DNA of 64,000 nt from Candidatus Enterousia sp. (GTDB lineage Bacteria > Pseudomonadota > Alphaproteobacteria > Rs-D84): NCBI GenBank assembly GCA_045539815.1, contig JAZQGC010000010.1, positions 27,583 to 91,582 of the forward strand, given 5' to 3'. Every line of letters begins with the position of its first letter. Within the stretch, counting starts at the first letter, position 1. A program made the position numbers and the translations under genes. The notes under the pieces are model-generated. The model was not told where the DNA came from. It made no database searches and saw nothing but the letters and a program-made list of their open reading frames with translations. Below, piece after piece: positions 5,213 through 16,240 of this stretch.

Positions 5213-5416
5213 ATGCCAAAATTAAAAACAAAGTCGTACTTGAAAAAGCGTGCGTCTATGACTGCAACTGGTAAAATCCGTGTTGCACGTAACTCTCACA
5301 AGAAGCTGTTGCGTAAAAAATCTGCCCGTGCAAACAAGGCAGGTGCAAAACCACAGTACTTAAACGATAACATGGTTGGACAGGCAAAAATCCTGGCCCC
5401 ATATGGTTTGAAATAA
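5213..5416 (+). CDS. rpmI: 50S ribosomal protein L35
   Basis: MPKLKTKSYLKKR..., a 67-aa basic protein upstream of rplT. AGAGGA Shine-Dalgarno sequence upstream. Confidence 0.9.
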   Translation: MPKLKTKSYLKKRASMTATGKIRVARNSHKKLLRKKSARANKAGAKPQYLNDNMVGQAKILAPYGLK

Positions 5417-5434
5417 GCAAGGGGGTAACAGGTC

Positions 5435-5803
5435 ATGGCAAGAGTAAAACGCGGAACAACCGTTAAACAAAAACATAACAAGATTTTGGCGCGCGCCAAA
5501 GGTTATTTGGGCCGTCATCACTCAACATATCGCGCAGCACGTGAAAAAACAGAAAAAGCAGGACAGTACGCATATCGCGACAGACGCGTTAAAAAACGTG
5601 AATTTCGTTCATTGTGGATTGTTCGTATCAATGCTGCTGTACGCGCAAATGGTATGACATACAGCCAATTCATGAATGGTTTAAAGAAAGCAGGCGTTGC
5701 ACTGGACCGCAAGGTTCTGGCCGAAATGGCATATGCAGGCGATGCAAATTTTGCCACATTGGTTGAAACAGCAAAACGATTTATTTCTGCCGAAGCTAAA
5801 TAA
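5435..5803 (+). CDS. rplT: 50S ribosomal protein L20
   Basis: [18 protein letters not shown]...[22 protein letters not shown] is the typical L20 sequence. Confidence 0.95.
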
Positions 5804-5837
5804 TACCTTGTCGGCAGGTATATGTTTTGTAATAATG

Positions 5838-5870
5838 AAAGCCGACAATTGACGGCTTTTGTTCTTTTAA
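5838..5870 (+). terminator. intrinsic terminator / attenuator hairpin between rplT and pheS
   Basis: AAAGCCG-ACAATTGA-CGGCTTT followed by TTGTTCTTTT. Its 5' arm (GCCGACAA, 5841-5848) is also perfectly complementary to TTGTCGGC at 5808-5815. Confidence 0.55.
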
Positions 5871-5891
5871 GTTATATGTAAGGTAAAAGTT

Positions 5892-6839
5892 ATGCAAGAA
5901 AAAATAAAAAATATAAATACACTGGAAGAATTGCAGGTCTTGTACACCGCAACATTTGGAAAAAATGGCACAATGACCGCGCGTTTAAAAGAAATGAAAA
6001 ATCTGGATAATGATGCGCGTGCAGCATTAAATCTGGAAAATCAAACATTGCGTGAATTGTTTAAAATGCGTCAGACAGAAATTGAAAACGCGGTATTGAT
6101 GGCTGGATTACAGAAACAAAAATTGGATGTATCGTTAAATCCAATGCCTGAAAATCGTGGTACATTACATCCATTGACACAAAGTTTATCTGAAATTGCA
6201 GCAATTCTGGAATCGTTTGGTTACAAAATGTACACCGGTCCAGAAATCGAAGATGATTGGCATAACTTTACCGCATTGAATACACCGATGCATCATCCGG
6301 CCCGTGACATGCAAGACAGTTTCTTCTTGGAAAACGGCAATGTTTTGCGTACCCAAACATCTGCGATTCAAATTCGTGCGATGGAACGTGATGGTGTTCC
6401 GATTAAAATGTTTGGTGTTGGATCTACTTATCGCAAAGAAATGGATGCAACACACAGTCCTATGTTTGGTCAAATCGAAGGTTTATATGTTGATAAAAAT
6501 GTTACTATGTCCGATTTATTGGCAGATGTTCGTGCATTTTTATCAAAATTCTTTGGCATTGAAAACATAGAATTGCGTATTCGTCCATCTTATTTCCCAT
6601 TTACAGACCCCAGCATTGAAATTGATATGAAGTGGAAAAATGATAAATGGTTGGAATTGATGGGTGCGGGTATGGTTCATCCAAATGTATTGCGTAATTG
6701 CGGTATAAATCCTGATGAATACCAAGGTTTTGCATTTGGCTTTGGTTGGGACAGATTGGCAATGTTAAAGTATGGATTGAACGATATTCGCCAGTTCTAT
6801 GATAATGATGTTCGTTGGTTACGCAGCGCAGGATTTTAA
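5892..6839 (+). CDS. pheS: phenylalanine--tRNA ligase alpha subunit
   Basis: 315 aa with class II aaRS core motifs (HPARDMQDSFF, RTQTSAIQIR, GAGMVHPNVL...GFAFGFGWDRLAM). Followed by pheT. Confidence 0.95.
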   Translation: MQEKIKNINTLEELQVLYTATFGKNGTMTARLKEMKNLDNDARAALNLENQTLRELFKMRQTEIENAVLMAGLQKQKLDVSLNPMPENRGTLHPLTQSLSEIAAILESFGYKMYTGPEIEDDWHNFTALNTPMHHPARDMQDSFFLENGNVLRTQTSAIQIRAMERDGVPIKMFGVGSTYRKEMDATHSPMFGQIEGLYVDKNVTMSDLLADVRAFLSKFFGIENIELRIRPSYFPFTDPSIEIDMKWKNDKWLELMGAGMVHPNVLRNCGINPDEYQGFAFGFGWDRLAMLKYGLNDIRQFYDNDVRWLRSAGF

Positions 6840-6854
6840 TACGGGGGTACAGTT

Positions 6855-9158
6855 ATGAAATGGACACTTGATTGGTTACAAGAATATTTAAAAACAGATG
6901 CGTCTGCACAGGATATATCTGACACATTAACGCGTATCGGATTGGAAATCGAAGATATGCAGTCTCCGATATCGCCGATTGCTGCAAAAATCGTTGAATG
7001 TCGGGCGCATGAAAACAGCGACCATTTACATGTTTTACAGGTTGACGATGGGGCTTCGACCCTGCGTCAGATTGTCTGTGGCGCACCAAATGTACGCGTG
7101 GGCCTGGTATCTGCGCTGGCGACGCCTGGGTGTGTAATTGGTGGACATGAAATTCAGTCTGGTAAATTGCGTGGCGTTTTATCAGATGGTATGATGTGTT
7201 CTGGCAAAGAACTGGGTATAAACGATGACCACAGTGGAATTATCGAATTGCCAAGTGATACAGTTGTTGGAACACCCGTACTTGAAACAAAAACAGTGTT
7301 TGACGCGGGTATTACCCCAAACAGACCAGACTATTTGTCTGTACGCGGTATTGCGCGTGATTTGTCTGCGGCGGGTATTGGCGAATATATTGCACCAAAC
7401 GACACACCGTTCAACAGTGTTTCTGGAAATCGTCAGGTTATATTAAAAACAGATAAATGCCGTGCATATAAATTCATTGAAATACATGACATTACCGTTA
7501 ACCCCAGTGATAAAAAAATTGCATCAAGACTTGCTGCGATTGGTATAAATCCGAAAAATGCGCCGGTTGATGCAACAAACTATATCTGTTATGACATGGC
7601 GCAGCCAATGCATTGTTTTGACGCAGACGAAATCAATGGTGATATTACCGTGCGTCAGGCACAGAACGGTGAAAAATTTACAGACTTGTTCGGCAACGAA
7701 CACGAATTGTTGGATACAGATGTTGTTATTGCAGACGCGTCCGGTATTTTGGCACTGGCGGGTGTAATCGGTGGCGCGCGCGGTTCAACAACAGAAAATA
7801 CAAAAAACATAATATTGGAATCTGCGTACTTTGATGCGGTATCTGTTCGTAAATCTGCGAAAAGATTGGGTATATCAACAGACGCATCTTATCGGTATGA
7901 ACGCGGTATTGATCCAACAATAACGGGTGTGGCGGCACAGTATGCGGCTGATATTATTATGTCTGCATGTGGTGGTAATATTGTTTGTGCGGTTGCGGCG
8001 GGTTCAGACACACCAACAAATATTGCAATAGAATATACACCTGATTATTTTGTAAAGAAAACAGGCGTTGAAATGTCTTGTGATACCCAGCGTGATATAT
8101 TGATTAAGTTGGGATATGTTGTTGATGACTCATCAGAAACATGGATTGTAACACCACCTTCTTTGCGTGTGGATGTTTCTATCCCAGAAACGATTGTGGC
8201 GGATTTATTGCGTATACATGGTTATGATAAAATTGCAACTGCCAAGAATCATACATATGGCGAAGTATCAGGTCATGATATGTTTGAAACAAATATCAAA
8301 ACATTACTGGCGTCACGCGGATTAAACGAATGTCGTTCGTTTGGTTTTGGAAACAGTCAAATTGAAAAGATATTGTCTGACAGGCCAATAATACCGGTTT
8401 CAAATCCGATTACCGCAGACTATGACACAATGCGAAATAGTTTGTTGTTTGGTTTATTGTATGCGGTTACGAATAATGAAAAGCGCGGTTACCCAGATTT
8501 AAATTTATTTGAACTAGGTACAGTGTTTGATGGTGATATGCCATGTCAGCAACATACACAAATCGCGATTGTTCGCACGGGCAGCAATTCACCAAAACAT
8601 TGGACCGGCCGCAGTCGTGATGTTGATATATATGATATCAAGGCTGATTTAATCGCATTAATGCAGGGGCAACGATTCACTGTTTCAACGGAAAATGCAC
8701 CATTATGGGCACATCCTTACAGATATGGCGCATTGTACCAAGGTAAAAAGAAAATCGCAGAATTTGGTGAATTACATCCATCTGTTGCCAAGAAGTTGCG
8801 TATAAAAACAAATGTTGTTATCGCAATTGTCGAAGATATTCAAAATCTGCCTGCAAAACGCGGTGGAAAATCGCCTGTGTTATCAGAATTTCAACCAATA
8901 ACACGTGATTTTGCGTTTATTGTTGATGTTGATACACCATCAGAAAAATTAACATCTGTCGCACAAAGCGCAGACAGTCGTATAACAAATGTAATTGTTT
9001 TTGATTCATTTGATATGAACGATGGCAAAAAGTCTATTGCGTTTACAATAACGATTCAACCAACAGACAACATGTCAGATTCAGATTTACAACAAATCCA
9101 ATCTGTGGTAATTGCGTCTGTTGAAAAGAAATGTAATGCAACGATTCGCGATAAATAA
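6855..9158 (+). CDS. pheT: phenylalanine--tRNA ligase beta subunit
   Basis: 767 aa with an N-terminal tRNA-binding (Trbp111/EMAP-like) domain (HLHVLQVDDG...IVCGAPNVRVG), B3/4, B5 and a C-terminal FDX-ACB-like end. Confidence 0.95.
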   Translation: MKWTLDWLQEYLKTDASAQDISDTLTRIGLEIEDMQSPISPIAAKIVECRAHENSDHLHVLQVDDGASTLRQIVCGAPNVRVGLVSALATPGCVIGGHEIQSGKLRGVLSDGMMCSGKELGINDDHSGIIELPSDTVVGTPVLETKTVFDAGITPNRPDYLSVRGIARDLSAAGIGEYIAPNDTPFNSVSGNRQVILKTDKCRAYKFIEIHDITVNPSDKKIASRLAAIGINPKNAPVDATNYICYDMAQPMHCFDADEINGDITVRQAQNGEKFTDLFGNEHELLDTDVVIADASGILALAGVIGGARGSTTENTKNIILESAYFDAVSVRKSAKRLGISTDASYRYERGIDPTITGVAAQYAADIIMSACGGNIVCAVAAGSDTPTNIAIEYTPDYFVKKTGVEMSCDTQRDILIKLGYVVDDSSETWIVTPPSLRVDVSIPETIVADLLRIHGYDKIATAKNHTYGEVSGHDMFETNIKTLLASRGLNECRSFGFGNSQIEKILSDRPIIPVSNPITADYDTMRNSLLFGLLYAVTNNEKRGYPDLNLFELGTVFDGDMPCQQHTQIAIVRTGSNSPKHWTGRSRDVDIYDIKADLIALMQGQRFTVSTENAPLWAHPYRYGALYQGKKKIAEFGELHPSVAKKLRIKTNVVIAIVEDIQNLPAKRGGKSPVLSEFQPITRDFAFIVDVDTPSEKLTSVAQSADSRITNVIVFDSFDMNDGKKSIAFTITIQPTDNMSDSDLQQIQSVVIASVEKKCNATIRDK

Positions 9159-10058: not shown

Positions 10059-13000
10059 TTACACCTTTTTTACAGATAATGACAGATTGTATCCATCTAT
10101 TTCAGTATTGTATTCACCATCACCAGATACGATTTCAACAATCAATGCATCACGCATAATACGATTTTTATGCTGTTCAATTGCGCTTGCCAACGCAGGG
10201 TCTGCATTGTATGTCAAAACGATTCGGTCTGACACATCCAGTCCGGCAGATTTACGCGTGTCTTGGATAAAGCGCAACGCATCATTTGCCAAGCCTTCGG
10301 CAATCAGTTCTGCGTTTAATTCTGTATCCAGTACAACAACGGCTGTATTATCTGGCAGTGCGGCCCCGGTAATACCGTCTTTAACCGTCAGGCGATTTTC
10401 AAATTCATCGCTGTTCAGTTCGTATCCGCCCGCCAATAATTTATCGCCTGTGATTTGATATTCATTGCGTTTTACGGCCGGGATAATATCTTTTAACGCC
10501 CCGCCCAAACGTGCGCCAATTTTTGGTGTAATCAGGTACACAAAACTGTCTGCAACATTTGAAATATCAGAATCAAATTTAACAGATTTAACATTTAATT
10601 CGTCTTTGATAATTTCTGCGTATTCTGGCATATTTGCGCCCGCCACAGTCAAAGAATTTAATGGCAATCGATTGCGCAGTTTGTATTGTTCGCGCAACTG
10701 TTTTCCGGTTGAAACGATTGCCTGTACGCGGCGCATATCTTCGACGATTTTTGCATCAAATTCATCAGCAACCGGCCAATCTGTTAGATGCACAGATTCA
10801 TTACCTGTTAAATTGCGATAGATGTATTCAGATATAAATGGCGCAAATGGTGCCAATACTTTGCACAGCCCGATCAGTACTGTATACAATGTATCAAATG
10901 CATCTTGTTCTTCGTCCCAGAATCGTACACGTCCGCGTCTGATATACCAGTTGTTTAATATATCCAAGAATCGAACAAATTCTTTGACTGCCACATCTGG
11001 TTTATATTCATCCAACGCAGATTTTACATTTGTTGTCAGAACACTTAATTCTGCCAATATGTATTTATCCAGCGCATTATCAGAATTTTCAATCTGTTTT
11101 GCGGTTATATTACCTGCGTTTGCATACAGGGTAAAGAAGTGGTATGCGTTCCACAACGGTGTTTGAATTGTTTTTGTTGATTCTGTAAACACTTTACCAT
11201 CTTTATCAACAGGCACAGGTTCTGCCTTCATAAAGTTTGACCCCAATATAAACAAACGTATTGCATCCGCGCCGTATTGTTCGATTTGTTCTGTTGGGTC
11301 AACAAAGTTGCGCAATGATTTCGAGAATTTCTTTTTATTTTCATCAACAATCATACCATTTGCAGAAACAGACATAAATGCTGGCTTATCAAACAACGCT
11401 GTTGCCAATACCATCAAAGAATAGAACCATCCGCGTGTTTGGTCTTGTCCTTCGATAATATAATCAGCGGGGAAAGATGTTTCAAATTTATCCTTGTTTT
11501 CAAACGGATAATGCAACGATGCCCATGGCATAGACCCTGATTCTACCCAGCAATCCAATACATCGCTTATACGGGTCCAACCATCTTTTGTCAGTTTATC
11601 CAATGTTGGGCGATGCAGGTCATCAACCGGAACCCCAAAGAATTCTTCCAGTTCTGCGATTGAACCAAATACTTTGAATTCGCCGTTCTTTTCCCAGATT
11701 GGCAATGGCATACCCCAGAAACGGTTTCTGGATATGGACCAAGGACGGGCATTTTCAATCCAAGAACGGAATCTTTCGCCAGCCGATGTCCAGTTTACCA
11801 TTGCATTATTTGCCAACAGTTTATCTTTGATTTTTGGCACATCGATATACCAAGAATCTGTTGCGCGATAAATCAGTTTTTGTTTACTGCGGTCACCAAA
11901 TGGATAACTGTGCTTATACTGTTCTTTTTTGACCAGTTTACCATTTGTTTTTAACCAATCCAGAATGCGTGGTGTTGCATCAAAAATGTTTTCGCCGGCA
12001 AAATCCGTCACTGTTTCATCAAAGTTGCCATAGTCATCAACATTTAACAAAACAGGAAAATGTGGGTCAACATTTTTTGCCGCCCAAAAGTCGTCTGCAC
12101 CATATGCTGGCGCGATATGAACAATACCTGTACCATCGCTGTCGGATACATAGTCTGCCGGTATTACCTGGAATAATAAATCAGACTGTCCTGCATAATA
12201 TGGGAACAGTGGTGTATAATGTAATCCGGCCAATTCAGCCCCCATTACACGACCAATTTCTGTCGCATTTGCGAATTGTTTTTCATATGCCTTTAATCTG
12301 GATTCTGCGATTACATATACCGCCCCGTCTTCATCTTGCATACGCAGATATTCCATATTTGGATTAACCGCCAATGCGCTGTTTGCAGGCAGTGTCCATG
12401 GTGTTGTTGTCCATGCGATAACACGGTCGCCATTTTCCAATTCGAACCAAACTGTTACGGCGTCATCAACAATTTCACGATAGTCCTGTGATGCTTCGGA
12501 ATTAGAAACCACCGTACCGTTTACCCAGTCATATGGATTAACGCTGTAATCTTTGTACAACAAACCCTTGTCATACAAAGACTTTAATGTCCACAGCATA
12601 GATTCCATATAGTTTTTATTCATTGTTTTATAACCGTATTCGTCGCCAATTTTTACCCAGCGTCCCATACGTGTAATAAAACGATTCCATTCATTTGTAT
12701 ATGTCATAACATCTGTGCGACACATATCACAGAAAGCGGTGATACCTTCTTCTGCGACAATATTTTTGGCGGTTCTGCCCTGCTTTTTTTCAACAGAATT
12801 TTCTGCGGGCAACCCATGGCAATCCCAACCCAGTTCACGGTTAACAAATCGTCCGTTCATTGTCTGAAAGCGCGAAATCATATCTTTTACCACGGTTACG
12901 CCCAGGTGTCCCCAGTGTGGTGTACCATTTGCAAATGGGGGGCCGTCAAAGAAACTAAAAGGCCGTCCAGATTTTGTTTTGTCCAATGCTTTATCAAAAG

Positions 13001-13082
13001 TATTATTTTCACGCCAGTATTCCAACACTTGTTGTTCCAGTGTCGTAAAATCTGCGCGTATATCCGTTTTTGGGTATGCCAT
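10059..13082 (-). CDS. ileS: isoleucine--tRNA ligase
   Basis: 1007 aa with class I motifs PPFANGTPHWGHL (HIGH-type) and KFSKSLRN (KMSKS). CP1 editing region present. Confidence 0.95.
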   Translation of the reverse strand: MAYPKTDIRADFTTLEQQVLEYWRENNTFDKALDKTKSGRPFSFFDGPPFANGTPHWGHLGVTVVKDMISRFQTMNGRFVNRELGWDCHGLPAENSVEKKQGRTAKNIVAEEGITAFCDMCRTDVMTYTNEWNRFITRMGRWVKIGDEYGYKTMNKNYMESMLWTLKSLYDKGLLYKDYSVNPYDWVNGTVVSNSEASQDYREIVDDAVTVWFELENGDRVIAWTTTPWTLPANSALAVNPNMEYLRMQDEDGAVYVIAESRLKAYEKQFANATEIGRVMGAELAGLHYTPLFPYYAGQSDLLFQVIPADYVSDSDGTGIVHIAPAYGADDFWAAKNVDPHFPVLLNVDDYGNFDETVTDFAGENIFDATPRILDWLKTNGKLVKKEQYKHSYPFGDRSKQKLIYRATDSWYIDVPKIKDKLLANNAMVNWTSAGERFRSWIENARPWSISRNRFWGMPLPIWEKNGEFKVFGSIAELEEFFGVPVDDLHRPTLDKLTKDGWTRISDVLDCWVESGSMPWASLHYPFENKDKFETSFPADYIIEGQDQTRGWFYSLMVLATALFDKPAFMSVSANGMIVDENKKKFSKSLRNFVDPTEQIEQYGADAIRLFILGSNFMKAEPVPVDKDGKVFTESTKTIQTPLWNAYHFFTLYANAGNITAKQIENSDNALDKYILAELSVLTTNVKSALDEYKPDVAVKEFVRFLDILNNWYIRRGRVRFWDEEQDAFDTLYTVLIGLCKVLAPFAPFISEYIYRNLTGNESVHLTDWPVADEFDAKIVEDMRRVQAIVSTGKQLREQYKLRNRLPLNSLTVAGANMPEYAEIIKDELNVKSVKFDSDISNVADSFVYLITPKIGARLGGALKDIIPAVKRNEYQITGDKLLAGGYELNSDEFENRLTVKDGITGAALPDNTAVVVLDTELNAELIAEGLANDALRFIQDTRKSAGLDVSDRIVLTYNADPALASAIEQHKNRIMRDALIVEIVSGDGEYNTEIDGYNLSLSVKKV

Positions 13083-13108
13083 AACAAAATGCTCCGTTTT
13101 TTTATATT

Positions 13109-13130
13109 AAAAAAAGGCGCCACGCGCCCC
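13109..13130 (-). terminator. intrinsic terminator inside the ileS 5' leader (attenuator)
   Basis: Minus strand GGCGC-GTG-GCGCC (13128-13116) plus T7 (13115-13109), 26 nt upstream of the ileS ATG. Confidence 0.6.
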
Positions 13131-13156
13131 AGCCACCGCAGAAGCGCAGTTGCCGT

Positions 13157-13189
13157 TTATTTAATAATAATTATTGTTTGTGTTTTCAT
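13157..13189 (-). CDS. putative Ile-rich leader peptide MKTQTIIIIK
   Basis: ATG AAA ACA CAA ACA ATA ATT ATT ATT AAA TAA, with four consecutive Ile codons. Located between a promoter and the leader terminator of ileS. Confidence 0.45.
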   Translation of the reverse strand: MKTQTIIIIK

Positions 13190-13197
13190 CACGACAG

Positions 13198-13226
13198 ATT
13201 CTACACCGTATTTTTTGAAAATGCAA
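13198..13226 (-). promoter_or_regulatory. sigma70-type promoter for the ileS leader
   Basis: TTGCAT (13226-13221), 17 nt, TAGAAT (13203-13198). The leader ATG lies 8 nt after the -10, so the leader mRNA is leaderless or nearly so. Confidence 0.5.
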
Positions 13227-13279: not shown

Positions 13280-13307
13280 AAAAAATCCCCGTCTGGGGAT
13301 TTTTTTT
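13280..13307 (-). terminator. intrinsic terminator after tRNA-Thr
   Basis: ATCCCC-GTCT-GGGGAT flanked by an A-tract and a T-tract. Confidence 0.7.
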
Positions 13308-13312
13308 ATTTC

Positions 13313-13388
13313 TGGTGCCGGTGACAGGACTTGAACCTGCGACCCCCTCATTACGAATGAGATGCTCTACCAGCTGAGCTACACCGGC
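13313..13388 (-). tRNA. tRNA-Thr (anticodon CGU), CCA encoded
   Basis: Reverse complement is GCCGGTGTAGCTCAGCTGGTAGAGCATCTCATTCGTAATGAGGGGGTCGCAGGTTCAAGTCCTGTCACCGGCACCA. It folds as a cloverleaf with anticodon loop TTCGTAA. Confidence 0.9.
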
Positions 13389-13418: not shown

Positions 13419-13497
13419 CAAATACCAGCAGTTTTTTAGCGCAGTTTGTTAACGTTTTCATACAATTTGCATTTGATAAAATCACAATATGGTTTAT
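13419..13497 (-). repeat. repeat R1, copy a (3' end of the ACP-like ORF plus 17 nt)
   Basis: 79 bp, 75/79 identical to 14072-14150, in direct orientation. Confidence 0.9.
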
Positions 13498-14005
13498 CTG
13501 TATTATTTTCTTGTTTTGGCATATAGCACGGTCTTTCCATCAATTTACAGAATGGTTGATTTTTAACAGTTATGCAAAAACCTGGGTGTTTTATTGTTGG
13601 TTTGTTTGTGTGTTCTTTTGCCTCAGGTTTTAAAACAACAGCTGTACGCTTGTCTTCATGAATATTTAAATTTGATTTTAAGATCTGTTCAAAAACAGGA
13701 ACTTCTTGCTTGTTTTTACGAGCTCTTGAATTGGATTTGTTAAAATTAGATTTATTCCCATTGATATTATGAGTTTCTATAGCCTTTACCATTTCTGAAA
13801 AAGAATAAGAACTATACTTTTCCTCGTCTATGTGGTCGATTCCAAATTCTTTTTCGATATCGAATGACAGTCCAAGTGTGTCCAGGGAATCCAAACCGAT
13901 TTCAAAAAGAAAATTTTGTTTGTTTTTATGTTCTTCCAGTGTTTCAGTACTTATCTCGTATTTCTCTAATAAAATTGTTTTTAATTTTGATTCGACGTTG
14001 CTCAT
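13436..14005 (-). CDS. acyl-carrier-protein domain fused to a low-complexity linker and a Cys-rich C-terminal tail
   Basis: N-terminal ~80 aa has the ACP signature EIGLDSLDTLGLSFDIEKEFGI (DSL phosphopantetheine-attachment serine). This is followed by NGNKSNFNKSNSRARKNKQ and then a tail with 5 Cys (C-x9-C-x6-C-x15-C-x4-C). Confidence 0.6.
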   Translation of the reverse strand: MSNVESKLKTILLEKYEISTETLEEHKNKQNFLFEIGLDSLDTLGLSFDIEKEFGIDHIDEEKYSSYSFSEMVKAIETHNINGNKSNFNKSNSRARKNKQEVPVFEQILKSNLNIHEDKRTAVVLKPEAKEHTNKPTIKHPGFCITVKNQPFCKLMERPCYMPKQENNTDKPYCDFIKCKLYENVNKLR

Positions 14006-14591: not shown

Positions 14592-14654
14592 TTTTTTTAT
14601 GCCTTTATCTTGCGCATTACGACCATAATACCCGCGGGTGTCATACCCGGGATT
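14592..14654 (-). repeat. repeat R2, copy b (genuine 3' end of mnmG plus 5 nt)
   Basis: See R2 copy a. Confidence 0.9.
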
Positions 14655-16240
14655 CTTGACAGGTCTGCAATATTTTCTGGGCGTGTTGCAGTCAGTTTTT
14701 CAATCAATTCATTTGTCAGTCCTGGCAACCCAGTATATTGAAAATCGTGTGGAATTTTTAAATCAGCATCGCGTTTGTATGCGGCGATTTCGCGTTCATT
14801 TCGTGCAATGTATCCGGCATAGAATTTATCGTTTTGTTCAATAATATCTTTTTTAATAGTGTATATTTTATCAAACCATTGTTGTGTGCACAGCCCCAAA
14901 TCAACCCCGATTTTCCCCAGTCGTGCAATTGCATTATCTGCGCGCAGGCTTAATCTGTATTCTGCGCGTGATGTAAACATGCGGTATGGTTCATCAACCC
15001 CCAGTGTTGTTATGTCATCAATCAGAACACCAATCATTGCATTTGTTCGGTCCAGAATCAGCGGTTCTGAATTTAATGCGTATGCGGCGGCATTTGCGCC
15101 CGCGACCAGACCCTGGGCGGCGGCCTCTTCATATCCGGATGTACCGTTAATTTGTCCCGCAAAGAACATATATGGTAAATCTTTGCTTTGCAGTTTATCG
15201 TTCAATGCGCGTGCATCAATTGCATCGTATTCAATTGCATATCCGTATCGTACAATTTCTGCATTTTCAAGCCCCGGGATTGTACGAATCCATTTGTCTT
15301 GGATATCTGCGCCAAAGCTGGTTGATATCCCATTTGGATAAATTAAATCACTGTCCCAGCCTTCGGGTTCCAAGAACACGTGATGTGATATATGTTCTGG
15401 GAAACGCATAACTTTGTCTTCCAGACTGGGGCAATATCTGGGTCCTGTGCCCCGAATATCGCCGTTATACATTGGTGCGTTTTTTATATTTTCGCGAATA
15501 ATATCGTGTGTTTCCTGTGTTGTGTGTGTGATATAACAAACGCTGTCATATTTGTTGTTTTTATCCCCCCCTGCGAACCAATCGTGTGGCGCGTCGCCCG
15601 GTTGAATTTCGCATACAGAAAAATCAATAGATTCACGTTTTATACGTGCAGGTGTCCCTGTCTTTAATCGCAGTATTTTAAATCCGGCCCTTTGTAAAAC
15701 GCCCGATATGTTTTTGTCATTATCTTGGTATGTTCCATCGTCTTGCAGGCGTCCAGACGGGATTTTTTCGCTGCCGCGTGTAACAACCCCTTCCAGGAAC
15801 GTCCCGGTTGTCAGAACAATTGCATCTGCGCAATATTTATCATTGATTGTTTTTTCTTCTATATCAAATGTTTTAACTGCTTCAAAAACAACATCTAAAT
15901 TGTCATATTCGCCCAGAATATCAACAACGGCATTATGATATAAATTTCTGTCAATTTGTGCGCGCAGTGCCTGGGTTGCGGCACCGTGTGTTGCGTTCAG
16001 CGTGCGCCAGTGTATCCCAGAACGGTCTGCGGCGCGTCCCATTACACCACCCAGCGCGGTTATTTCTGCAACCATTTGTGATTTCCCGGGGCCACCAATA
16101 CTTGGGTTACAAGACAACGCACCCAAATCAGATTCTGCCTGGGTTAACAGCAGTGTTTTTGCACCACGACGCGCCGCCGCTGCTGCTGCTTCGACACCGG
16201 CATGCCCACCACCAATAACAATGACATTATACTTTTGCAT
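14597..16240 (-). CDS. mnmG: tRNA uridine 5-carboxymethylaminomethyl modification enzyme MnmG (GidA)
   Basis: 547 aa (short form) with an FAD-binding N-terminus (VIVIGGGHAGVEAA) and GidA family blocks (GPRYCPSLEDK, FFAGQINGTSGYEEAAAQG). Confidence 0.95.
   Translation of the reverse strand: MQKYNVIVIGGGHAGVEAAAAAARRGAKTLLLTQAESDLGALSCNPSIGGPGKSQMVAEITALGGVMGRAADRSGIHWRTLNATHGAATQALRAQIDRNLYHNAVVDILGEYDNLDVVFEAVKTFDIEEKTINDKYCADAIVLTTGTFLEGVVTRGSEKIPSGRLQDDGTYQDNDKNISGVLQRAGFKILRLKTGTPARIKRESIDFSVCEIQPGDAPHDWFAGGDKNNKYDSVCYITHTTQETHDIIRENIKNAPMYNGDIRGTGPRYCPSLEDKVMRFPEHISHHVFLEPEGWDSDLIYPNGISTSFGADIQDKWIRTIPGLENAEIVRYGYAIEYDAIDARALNDKLQSKDLPYMFFAGQINGTSGYEEAAAQGLVAGANAAAYALNSEPLILDRTNAMIGVLIDDITTLGVDEPYRMFTSRAEYRLSLRADNAIARLGKIGVDLGLCTQQWFDKIYTIKKDIIEQNDKFYAGYIARNEREIAAYKRDADLKIPHDFQYTGLPGLTNELIEKLTATRPENIADLSRIPGMTPAGIMVVMRKIKA

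Follow-up and report, generated by a model that had tools for sequence, protein, structure and literature searches.

The window, by which we mean the whole 64,000-nucleotide stretch of DNA analyzed here from the gut bacterium Candidatus Enterousia sp., carries on its minus strand an ileS gene (13082-10059; 10059-13095 when its Shine-Dalgarno sequence, GGAG at 13095-13092, is included). The gene encodes a type-2 (MupA/MupB-like) IleRS of 1007 aa, and this ORF scores 763.7 bits against the ileS model TIGR00392 (cut-off 621.4). Further upstream on the same strand lies a tRNA-Thr(CGU) gene (13388-13313) with a bidirectional terminator (13305-13280) recovered by a terminator scan; the two together (13280-13388) end just upstream of the promoter of the ileS leader. 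This putative promoter is sigma-70-like (13198-13226): TTGCAT (13226-13221) and TAGAAT (13203-13198) are separated by a 17-nt spacer, and 8 nt further on follows the ATG of a short open reading frame on the minus strand (13157-13189; ATG AAA ACA CAA ACA ATA ATT ATT ATT AAA TAA, encoding MKTQTIIIIK). Codons 6-9 of this mini-ORF, AUA AUU AUU AUU (13163-13174), are the presumed sensor codons. An intrinsic terminator (13109-13129) lies between the mini-ORF and ileS. The promoter, the mini-ORF, the terminator and the ileS ATG at 13082 had been placed on the minus strand by a sequence-only reading of the window, and the window sequence bears out every feature that it described at its coordinates.

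The promoter scan did not list the promoter because it matches the consensus at just 8 of 12 positions. The same layout, TTGnnn-17-TAnnnT at 7-8 nt ahead of the mini-ORF ATG, is found in 39 of 44 promoter-type loci among relatives. Since the promoter ends 8 nt from the mini-ORF ATG, we predict a transcript that is leaderless or almost leaderless.

Across relatives the mini-ORF follows the pattern M-x4-IIII-x-stop; it is 10 codons long in all 68 loci of the Candidatus Enterousia clade, as well as in every one of 105 further full elements. Among 105 distinct sequences it starts with ATG in 102 and with GTG in one; 103 have their stop at codon 11, the remaining two being five-Ile variants whose register is off by one codon. 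All three types of stop codon are used. The Ile run (four, rarely five codons) is constant as Ile with the single exception of a Val at Ile1; changes in its codons are confined to third positions (AUA/AUU/AUC), and 111 of 113 sequences use AUA for the first Ile. Within the variable codons 2-5 not one in-frame stop was observed, against 8.4 +/- 2.6 expected (0 of 5000 shuffles); the two remaining frames hold 15 and 5 stops at these codons. Conservation and the deficit of in-frame stops thus mark out a small leader ORF of the kind that leader-peptide attenuators have, and with four Ile among 10 codons ahead of ileS the ORF shows the cognate-codon enrichment of such systems. On these comparisons the mini-ORF is kept open by selection, and its ORF signatures point to translation.

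An Ile-run mini-ORF with a terminator was sought upstream of ileS in relatives, and the element was found directly upstream of the gene in 68 of 68 Candidatus Enterousia-clade loci. It was found at none of 89 outgroup ileS loci, which include type-2 IleRS loci from mixed phyla gathered via a search with the IleRS of Oceanicaulis (L070); this stepping-stone search for type-2 IleRS genes had no Caulobacter among its matches. The covariance model yields one match per locus, exclusively in the ileS leader, and a genome-wide pattern scan returned 105 full elements, with ileS as the next gene in 104 and a contig end cutting the remaining one. No second copy was found in the window or ahead of genes other than ileS. 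Nor were other leader-peptide attenuators found within the 64-kb window; the rplT-pheS spacer contains no Phe-run ORF, and pheS is here without a pheM-like leader.

On the single window sequence, the element could be due to chance: the window holds five copies of ATHATHATHATH where 3.9 are expected, so that the Ile run is not unusual on one sequence, and the fold of the window leader has a z-score of just -1.85, which is not statistically unusual on its own. It is the comparative evidence that makes the element convincing. Because it is conserved across more than 120 distinct relatives, it is not a product of chance, and its presence in every sampled relative makes a real amino-acid-sensing switch very probable, one of a classical kind not yet described for ileS.

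The terminator consists of a GGGCGC/GCGCCU stem (13129-13115) with a GUG loop, followed by seven U's (13115-13109), and its core, GGCGC-GTG-GCGCC plus T7 (13128-13109), was recovered independently by the terminator scan. In alignments of relatives 98.7-99.0% of its cells are paired and two pairs covary; the mean stability is -11.7 kcal/mol, and termination is predicted at this site. The antiterminator helix P2 (13121-13149, minus strand) pairs CUGCGCUUC (13149-13141) with GGGGCGCG.G (13130-13121), with a 2-bp GC/GC mini-stem in its loop. P2 has 9-10 bp, is part of both the minimum free energy (MFE) fold of the window leader and the RNAalifold consensus, and amounts by itself to -16.0 kcal/mol; 96.6-97.5% of its cells are paired, with compensatory changes at three pairs. 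The pairing of TGCGC (13148-13144) with GCGCG (13127-13123), noticed in the sequence-only reading, is real, though merely the core of this longer helix, and since the helix has 9-10 bp, the concern voiced there that it is short falls away. The 3' strand of P2 is the 5' arm of the terminator, so that the two helices are strand-sharing alternatives, as attenuators have. The common strand covaries with each partner, in three-way fashion at columns 36/58/69 (loci L013 and L031) and columns 34/60/67 (L060). The strong conservation of the element leaves few covariation events, and several of them probably trace to single ancestors.

The core idea of a translated Ile-run leader with a terminator and a competing helix, and without a T-box, is therefore strongly supported by the comparative data: the ORF has an invariant length, start, stop and Ile run, codons 2-5 vary yet stay free of stops in frame, terminator and competitor covary on their shared strand, and a search of the leader strand for Rfam families, T-box included, gave none (cmscan, Rfam 15, E<=10). 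On the plus strand, the sole match to Phe_leader (RF01859; 13194-13309) reaches 31.5 bits against a gathering threshold of 55 and covers the tRNA terminator region, and a sub-threshold match to HPnc0260, likewise on the strand opposite the leader, lies over the tRNA terminator; neither was retained.

The mechanism first proposed, with two states, is too simple. It omits a third conserved hairpin, 1:2 (13131-13154, minus strand; GGC.ACUGC / GCGGU.GCU, loop GCUUCU), whose 5' strand lies 3 nt past the stop codon; the outer A-U helix P0, described below, was likewise absent from it. Per-sequence folding predicts 1:2 in 64 of 64 distinct leaders (-10.6 +/- 1.4 kcal/mol), starting 2-5 nt downstream of the stop codon, and its topology is unchanged in ten variants with z-scores from -0.8 to -3.4. 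Paired cells make up 85.7% in A3 and 79% in A4, and one pair is seen as UG, CG and UA. Column-wise covariation of 1:2 is weak because its register varies; a 5-bp inner version, which was discarded, shows no covariation beyond conservation, and the support for the hairpin comes from per-sequence folding. On this modeling 1:2 is a candidate anti-antiterminator and possibly a pause hairpin.

The outer helix P0 (13105-13166, minus strand), taken from the RNAalifold consensus, pairs UAUUAAA (13166-13160) with UUUAAUA (13111-13105). Its 5' strand is made of the last base of Ile3, Ile4 and the Lys codon, its 3' strand of the end of the U-run and AAUA, and it can be extended by pairing of the stop-codon AA with earlier U's. 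Of its cells 97.6% are paired. Ile4 AUA is compensated by UUUUAUAA in 28 of 28 sequences, and further independent compensations join Ile4 AUC with G and codon-10 GAA with UUUUUC. P0 can coexist with both conformers; as it extends beyond the U-run, the full helix forms only in read-through RNA. A further helix, P1 (GGC 13154-13152 with GCC 13118-13116), is part of the window MFE, but many of its cells are unpaired or register-shifted across species, and we treat it as optional. Before P0 is transcribed the two conformers are near-isoenergetic (-23.5 vs -20.6 kcal/mol), and once P0 is included the gap is 0.18 +/- 2.9 kcal/mol. The spacing from stop codon to P2 differs by 6-9 nt among species, which counts against the attenuator model given below; ileS follows the element 36-58 nt past region 3 in relatives.

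These folds were related to the position of a ribosome by folding with ribosome footprints masked, for which E. coli pheM and trpL served as calibration; the model recovers the known logic of both leaders, best at footprints of A+12 to A+14. For the ileS leaders it predicts the terminator as the default without a ribosome. At A+12 to A+14 the probability of the terminator, P(T), is about 0.8 with the ribosome at Ile1-3; it lies at 0.73-0.50 for Ile4 and at 0.24-0.43 for codon 10, and is back at 0.85-0.98 once the stop codon is reached. The switch towards the antiterminator thus opens only with the ribosome at Ile4 or codon 10. The barrier from 1:2 to P2 (computed with findpath, which leaves out pseudoknotted intermediates) is about 13-14.5 kcal/mol without a ribosome, 10.1 (A+12) or 8.2 (A+14) kcal/mol with the ribosome at Ile4, and about 6 kcal/mol at codon 10. 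A pure equilibrium reading, in which an Ile stall anywhere frees the competitor, was rejected on the P(T) found at Ile1-3: a stall there does not by itself free the competitor, because its 5' strand is already tied up in 1:2, the first hairpin to form. In this folding, the earlier expectation that a ribosome stalled on the Ile run would release the competing strand would hold for Ile4, with codon 10 opening the switch too, and not for Ile1-Ile3. Since stalls at Ile1-Ile3 are predicted to act the same as no ribosome, the model assigns no direct structural part to three of the four strictly conserved Ile codons, which speaks against it.

From the comparative data and the modeling together, we consider it reasonably probable that a ribosome-mediated (leader-peptide) transcription attenuator adjusts ileS transcription to how much charged tRNA-Ile is available. 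The short transcript would begin at or beside the AUG of the 10-codon ORF M-x4-Ile-Ile-Ile-Ile-x-stop, and the RNA downstream would adopt one of two mutually exclusive states. In state T, 1:2 would conceal the antiterminator 5' strand, leaving the GC hairpin and U-run to form and transcription to stop before ileS; in state AT, the antiterminator 5' strand would pair with the terminator 5' arm as P2, and polymerase would continue into ileS. As 1:2 would form first, termination would be the default. Opening the switch would need the leading edge of the ribosome inside the base of 1:2 with P2 uncovered, which would be the case while the A site contains Ile4 or codon 10. At the stop codon a ribosome would cover the base of P2 as well, with termination as the outcome. 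Under a shortage of Ile-tRNA, ribosomes would dwell in the Ile run and occupancy of Ile4 would rise, giving more read-through and more IleRS, a homeostatic feedback as for E. coli pheST. P0 would close the entire switch and, once transcribed, shift the balance by ~3 kcal/mol in favor of the read-through fold, and its A-rich strand would be masked by any ribosome on the ORF. The host genomes are smaller than 1 Mb and lack amino-acid biosynthesis (PMC12306168).

The sign of regulation in this model hinges on the assumed footprint, 2-3 nt deciding the outcome at the stop codon. The proposal that a ribosome parked there masks the competitor holds at A+12 to A+14 and does not hold at the shorter mask of A+8 to A+11, where, in 58-81% of leaders, a ribosome at the stop makes P2 more probable than the terminator. 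The leader might then work in the opposite sense, as a sensor of completed translation: termination would again be the default, only a ribosome past the four Ile codons, at codon 10 or the stop, would melt 1:2 and leave P2 free, and efficient decoding of Ile would be needed for read-through, so that a shortage of Ile-tRNA or a lack of translation would lower ileS transcription, in a race between a paused polymerase and the ribosome. With 1:2 always 2-5 nt past the stop, a terminating ribosome would always melt it; the high barrier without a ribosome fits this sense of operation, and all four Ile codons as well as the fixed ORF length would gain a role as a timing device. We nevertheless regard the inverse sign as unlikely. 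It amounts to positive feedback on an essential synthetase, to which every characterized aaRS control that we know of (T-box, pheST attenuator, thrS) runs contrary; the footprint that serves trpL and pheM best restores the terminator at the stop; and the placement of the P2 5' strand at the edge of a terminating ribosome would be unneeded.

It is also conceivable, though very improbable in our view, that nothing is sensed: the terminator would be a constitutive partial terminator of the tRNA-Thr unit, P0-P1-P2 a structure that stabilizes or processes the 5' end of the ileS mRNA, and the mini-ORF incidental or untranslated. In 11 of 68 relatives tRNA-Thr does abut the element without a terminator of its own, its 3' end lying 10-20 nt from the mini-ORF with both promoter and terminator absent between them; the complete P0 is restricted to read-through RNA, and the MFE fold of the window leader consists of the long hairpin. 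The tRNA in the window has its own terminator, however, and such an arrangement would leave unexplained the invariant four-Ile run, the fixed 10-codon frame with its conserved ATG and stop, the absence of in-frame stops among variable codons, and the existence of two mutually exclusive helices that both covary. We give hardly any credence to a structure that binds a factor in trans, with the conserved GGCGGUGGCU loop and the hairpins recognizing uncharged tRNA-Ile (as a mini T-box) or IleRS (as in thrS-like autoregulation) and the Ile codons serving as RNA sequence: the loop segment GCGGUGGCU is almost invariant, the Ile codons show unusual conservation at their third positions, and the loop holds UGGC, which we take, as a lead only, to resemble the UGGN acceptor-binding motif of T-boxes, but the leader, at ~80 nt, has neither Stem I nor a specifier loop, cmscan gave no match to that riboswitch class (defined by Stem I with a specifier codon, the T-box sequence and an antiterminator bulge for the tRNA acceptor end), 1:2 pairing explains the conservation of the loop, UGGC would require a G73 discriminator that is normally absent from bacterial tRNA-Ile, and the deficit of in-frame stops indicates translation.

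As a probable leader-peptide attenuator, the element most invites comparison with E. coli pheM-pheST, where a short ORF rich in cognate codons likewise precedes a synthetase gene and a terminator is paired with a competing helix. In the footprint model, too, only the 3'-most regulatory codons of pheM open the switch and the stop codon restores the terminator. There is no sequence homology between the two. The pheM ORF is 14 codons long, its Phe codons are dispersed, and it is preceded by a normal 5' UTR; its distance to the terminator arm is 49 nt as against 27 nt in the ileS leader, and its terminator is restored at the stop at every footprint from A+8 to A+16, in the ileS leader only from A+12. 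With the trp, his, thr and ilv leaders of Proteobacteria the element shares regulatory codons, alternative 1:2, antiterminator and 3:4 hairpins, a U-run terminator and, as in superattenuation, a predicted default of termination without translation. In contrast to these, it would regulate a synthetase, in a genome without Ile biosynthesis; its regulatory codons precede region 1 instead of falling inside it; its ORF is probably leaderless, and there is an extra closing helix, P0. Its antiterminator also reuses the 5' strand of 1:2 (1:3 rather than 2:3 pairing), and through this shared strand the productive window for the ribosome is only about two codons in the model. The B. subtilis pyr leader offers a further parallel, with three successive exclusive hairpins and an outcome at the terminator that depends on whether the first is stabilized or melted; there the protein PyrR stabilizes the first hairpin, whereas for the ileS leader we propose that the leading edge of the translating ribosome acts as effector.

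To our knowledge, control of synthetases takes the form of T-boxes, protein autoregulation and, in the single classical case of pheST, a leader peptide. If our reading is true, ileS would be a second, independent leader-peptide attenuator, and the solution would recur among synthetases. The strict conservation spans an entire uncultured order-level lineage with genomes below 1 Mb, and such an attenuator would have outlasted extreme genome reduction in which protein regulators disappear. With its probably leaderless ORF, a 5' strand in two competing helices and a closing helix between A-tract and U-tract, the element could be a natural model for the read-out of ribosome position. The covariance model lets annotators flag a small ORF and regulatory RNA that gene callers overlook, and the element is a possible marker of Ile starvation in gut metatranscriptomes. 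Taken with all its particulars, the claim to novelty seems to us evenly poised: ileS would have its first demonstrated leader-peptide attenuator, in a minimal form, with a leaderless 10-codon ORF, a three-hairpin switch in which anti-antiterminator and antiterminator share their 5' strand, a read-through window of about two codons (Ile4 and codon 10) and a covarying outer helix that ties the coding A-tract to the terminator U-tract, kept by over 120 alphaproteobacterial species that depend obligately on a host or partner (<1 Mb, no Ile biosynthesis) as one of few gene-specific regulators. What is reportedly a survey of aaRS attenuation, by Lopatovskaya et al. in 2010, may hold an earlier prediction for ileS.

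The statement in the sequence-only reading that no leader-peptide attenuator of ileS had been described is nearly right: an uncharacterized 'ileS leader CDS', CCNA_03934, is listed for Caulobacter crescentus, where it was used as a negative control only (Schrader et al. 2014, PMC4117421). Like the mini-ORF, it is a small ORF upstream of ileS in an alphaproteobacterium, in that case translated according to ribosome profiling (PMC4117421); the Caulobacter record in that study is 2910 nt (PMC4117421). T-box riboswitches of ileS are known from Firmicutes and, as a translational type, from Actinobacteria (PMC1262725). They regulate the same gene in response to the same presumed signal, the charging of tRNA-Ile, but bind uncharged tRNA directly and do not require translation. 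Among our outgroups, the Actinomyces locus L077 shows a T-box-like GGGTGGTACCGCG sequence.

The ileS gene of the window (ORF 10059-13082, minus strand, ATG at 13082; TIGR00392 match of 763.7 bits) is preceded on the same strand by the promoter-like boxes TTGCAT (13226-13221) and TAGAAT (13203-13198), spaced by 17 nt. Eight nucleotides further lies a mini-ORF (13189-13157) that reads ATG AAA ACA CAA ACA, then the Ile codons ATA ATT ATT ATT, then AAA TAA. It is followed by a GC hairpin with seven U (13129-13109), also recovered by a terminator scan. All features claimed by the sequence-only reading were thus found on the minus strand at their coordinates. By itself, the single-window evidence is not compelling: 64 kb contain 5 matches to an Ile-run pattern where 3.9 would be expected, and the minimum-free-energy fold of the leader, which contains the antiterminator helix (P2), has a z-score of only -1.85. 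No Shine-Dalgarno sequence is visible before the mini-ORF, and the promoter-like boxes stop 7-8 nt 5' of its ATG in 39 of 44 loci; we infer a leaderless or nearly leaderless start. Upstream, a tRNA-Thr(CGU) gene (13313-13388, minus strand) has its own bidirectional terminator (13305-13280), and the leader has a promoter of its own. Conservation extends to the gene order (tRNA-Thr(CGU), then the leader, then ileS). Eleven of the 68 relatives (L017, L022, L027, L030, L033, L034, L038, L040, L048, L064 and L069) have a distance of only 10-20 nt from the tRNA 3' end to the mini-ORF and lack both promoter and terminator in this gap; in these loci the attenuator terminator may end the tRNA transcript too, and ileS expression would then be expected by read-through and processing.

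Relatives were retrieved with the IleRS protein (77 loci), and 68 of these belong to Candidatus Enterousia or to related alphaproteobacterial MAGs from the gut (IleRS identity 70-93%). The sequence-only reading had proposed a search for a conserved Ile-run mini-ORF with terminator 5' of ileS; the element is present directly upstream of ileS in 68/68 clade loci, while the mini-ORF is found in none of 89 outgroup ileS loci. A covariance model derived from the family has exactly one match per clade locus, always the ileS leader, and a single match across the 64-kb window. When 185,579 species genomes were scanned by pattern, at least 120 matches were obtained. Among the matches listed, 105 are full elements: in 104, ileS begins 36-58 nt after the conserved GGCUGGGGCG, and in the remaining one the contig end interrupts. 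Also among the matches listed, L214 proves to be a true element whose GTG start places it outside the strict pattern, and twelve others are chance matches within unrelated genes. N-terminal IleRS identity among the carriers listed goes down to 52%. The host lineage is the GTDB order Rs-D84, in which amino-acid biosynthesis is absent and genomes stay below 1 Mb (PMC12306168). Full-scoring copies also occur in a MAG labelled Paludibacteraceae (L184, 5469-5556, 85.6 bits) and a bin labelled Bacteroides fragilis (L241, 6479-6567, 84.3 bits); both contigs probably stem from the Enterousia clade and ended up in Bacteroidota genomes through mis-binning. One copy (L217, 2494-2581) lies on a closed 0.96-Mb chromosome of the lineage (OZ007020.1, 958,618 bp, labelled circular), the genome best suited for a full census of leader peptides and regulators.

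The coding signature was assessed on 105 distinct elements anchored by structure. Five codons 5' of the Ile run, 102 have ATG and one GTG; a stop directly follows codon 10 in 103, and the other two are five-Ile variants with the register off by one codon. Stop codon usage among 123 distinct elements is TAA 114, TAG 5 and TGA 4. Variation in codons 2-5 is free, with 68 distinct versions, yet no in-frame stop occurs there, against 8.4 +/- 2.6 expected and zero reached by 0/5000 shuffles; 15 stops occur in the +1 frame and 5 in the +2 frame. The 10-codon length is never altered by insertion or deletion, either in clade loci or in the full elements among the matches listed. Ile codons change at third positions only: 111 of 113 sequences open the run with AUA, and the later codons are mostly AUU, so that both tRNA-Ile isoacceptors, AUA decoding included, would presumably be read. 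These third positions (window 13163-13174, minus strand; all relatives) are nearly invariant yet outside every predicted helix. Selection on codon choice (for both isoacceptors or for slow wobble decoding), not on the amino acid alone, is suggested. In L214 (2341-2428, minus strand), GTG replaces ATG and the rest of the element is intact; leaderless initiation is usually described as requiring AUG, which makes this start notable if the ORF is leaderless.

Helix support was scored on model-fitted alignments of 64 and 96 distinct sequences. The terminator is paired in 98.7% and 99.0% of cells, respectively, with two covarying pairs. P2 is formed by CUGCGCUUC (13149-13141) and GGGGCGCG.G (13130-13121), and 97.5% and 96.6% of its cells are paired; it is longer than the short alternative helix that had been regarded as the weak point. 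The strand common to P2 and the terminator covaries with both partners, as in the three-way change G-to-A, C-to-U, G-to-A at columns 36/58/69 (L013 and L031) and 34/60/67 (L060). Two further elements had escaped the sequence-only reading. Per-sequence folding predicts an upstream hairpin, 1:2 (GGC.ACUGC / GCGGU.GCU, 13154-13131, minus strand), which starts 2-5 nt 3' of the mini-ORF stop and hides the first bases on the 5' strand of P2. All 64 distinct leaders are predicted to form 1:2 (-10.6 +/- 1.4 kcal/mol), and its topology is kept across ten sequence variants (z-scores -0.8 to -3.4); as sub-clades differ in register, covariation in fixed columns is weak. The outer closing helix, P0, joins a stretch running from the final base of Ile3 through Ile4 and codon 10 into the stop (13166-13160) with the distal U-run and AAUA (13111-13105, minus strand), with 97.6% of cells paired. 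Mutually independent compensations are seen: Ile4 AUA always occurs with UUUUAUAA (28/28), Ile4 AUC is matched by G, and GAA at codon 10 by UUUUUC. Since codon 10 encodes K, R, E, Q, G or I while P0 pairing is mostly kept, it appears constrained by RNA pairing rather than by the residue.

Taken alone, P2 comes to -16.0 kcal/mol and the terminator to -11.7. For RNA up to the U-run, 1:2 plus terminator reaches -23.5 kcal/mol versus -20.6 for the P2 state, and in 56 of 64 leaders it is the terminator state that has the lower energy; over the whole leader including P0, which is compatible with both states, the two are isoenergetic (0.18 +/- 2.9 kcal/mol). Because 1:2 is transcribed first and the nested path from 1:2 to P2 has a barrier of 13-14.5 kcal/mol without a ribosome, RNA free of ribosomes should terminate by default, much as classical leaders do in superattenuation.

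Ribosome positions were modelled by masking the RNA to n nt 3' of the A-site codon (A+n) and computing the terminator probability, P(T). In this model, E. coli pheM (P(T) 1.0 at early positions, 0.03-0.19 with the last Phe codons in the A site and again 1.0 at the stop) and trpL (dips at W10, W11 and R12) behave as they are known to, with best agreement at A+12 to A+14. At these masks, mean P(T) in ileS leaders is about 0.8 with Ile1-Ile3 in the A site, 0.73-0.50 with Ile4, 0.24-0.43 with codon 10 and 0.85-0.98 with the stop; the barrier from 1:2 to P2 falls from 13 to 10.1 (A+12) or 8.2 (A+14) kcal/mol at Ile4, and codon 10 brings it down to about 6. In the model, the proposal that a ribosome stalled on Ile codons frees the competitor would therefore hold for Ile4, but not for Ile1-Ile3. 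Its counterpart, termination with a ribosome at the stop codon, is likewise recovered at A+12 to A+14, whereas at A+8 to A+11 such a ribosome favours P2, and the same element could then possibly regulate with the opposite sign. The folding results at A+12 to A+14 support homeostatic attenuation with the 3'-most Ile codon as the putative effective sensor, as is predicted for the 3'-most regulatory codon of pheM. The model assigns Ile1-Ile3 no direct structural role; one possibility is that a ribosome at any point of the ORF covers the A-rich P0 strand, the partner of the U-tract.

The element is real, strongly conserved and cis-regulatory. Neither a T-box nor any other Rfam family matches it, and it shares the sequence-level characters of the trp/his/pheST class and would work alike, in keeping with the earlier preference for a leader peptide over a T-box. 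It is best filed among the leader-peptide attenuators, with some unusual anatomy. We consider it likely that the element is a ribosome-dependent attenuator, and hold the full statement, homeostatic sign included, with moderate confidence. No description of an ileS leader-peptide attenuator was found in the literature searched; the earlier claim of novelty stands to this extent, qualified by an uncharacterised Caulobacter 'ileS leader CDS (CCNA_03934)' from ribosome profiling (PMC4117421), the nearest precedent.

Elsewhere in the window, the order rpmI-rplT-pheS-pheT (5213-9158, plus strand) is as in E. coli. No pheM-like leader at pheS was found in the window: the 88-nt rplT-pheS spacer has no Phe-run leader, only a weak hairpin with a T-rich tract, plus an ORF of 19 codons, two of them for Phe. 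A 189-aa ORF immediately 5' of the tRNA (13436-14005, minus strand) is acyl carrier protein-like in its first ~80 residues; all its scores are under curated cut-offs (best 35.7 bits versus 92-106), and its C-terminal ~110 residues have no assignment. The C-terminal domain of the MnmG (GidA) homologue (14597-16240, minus strand) appears divergent or shortened, because the protein, at only 547 aa, matches just profile positions 1-470 of 616.
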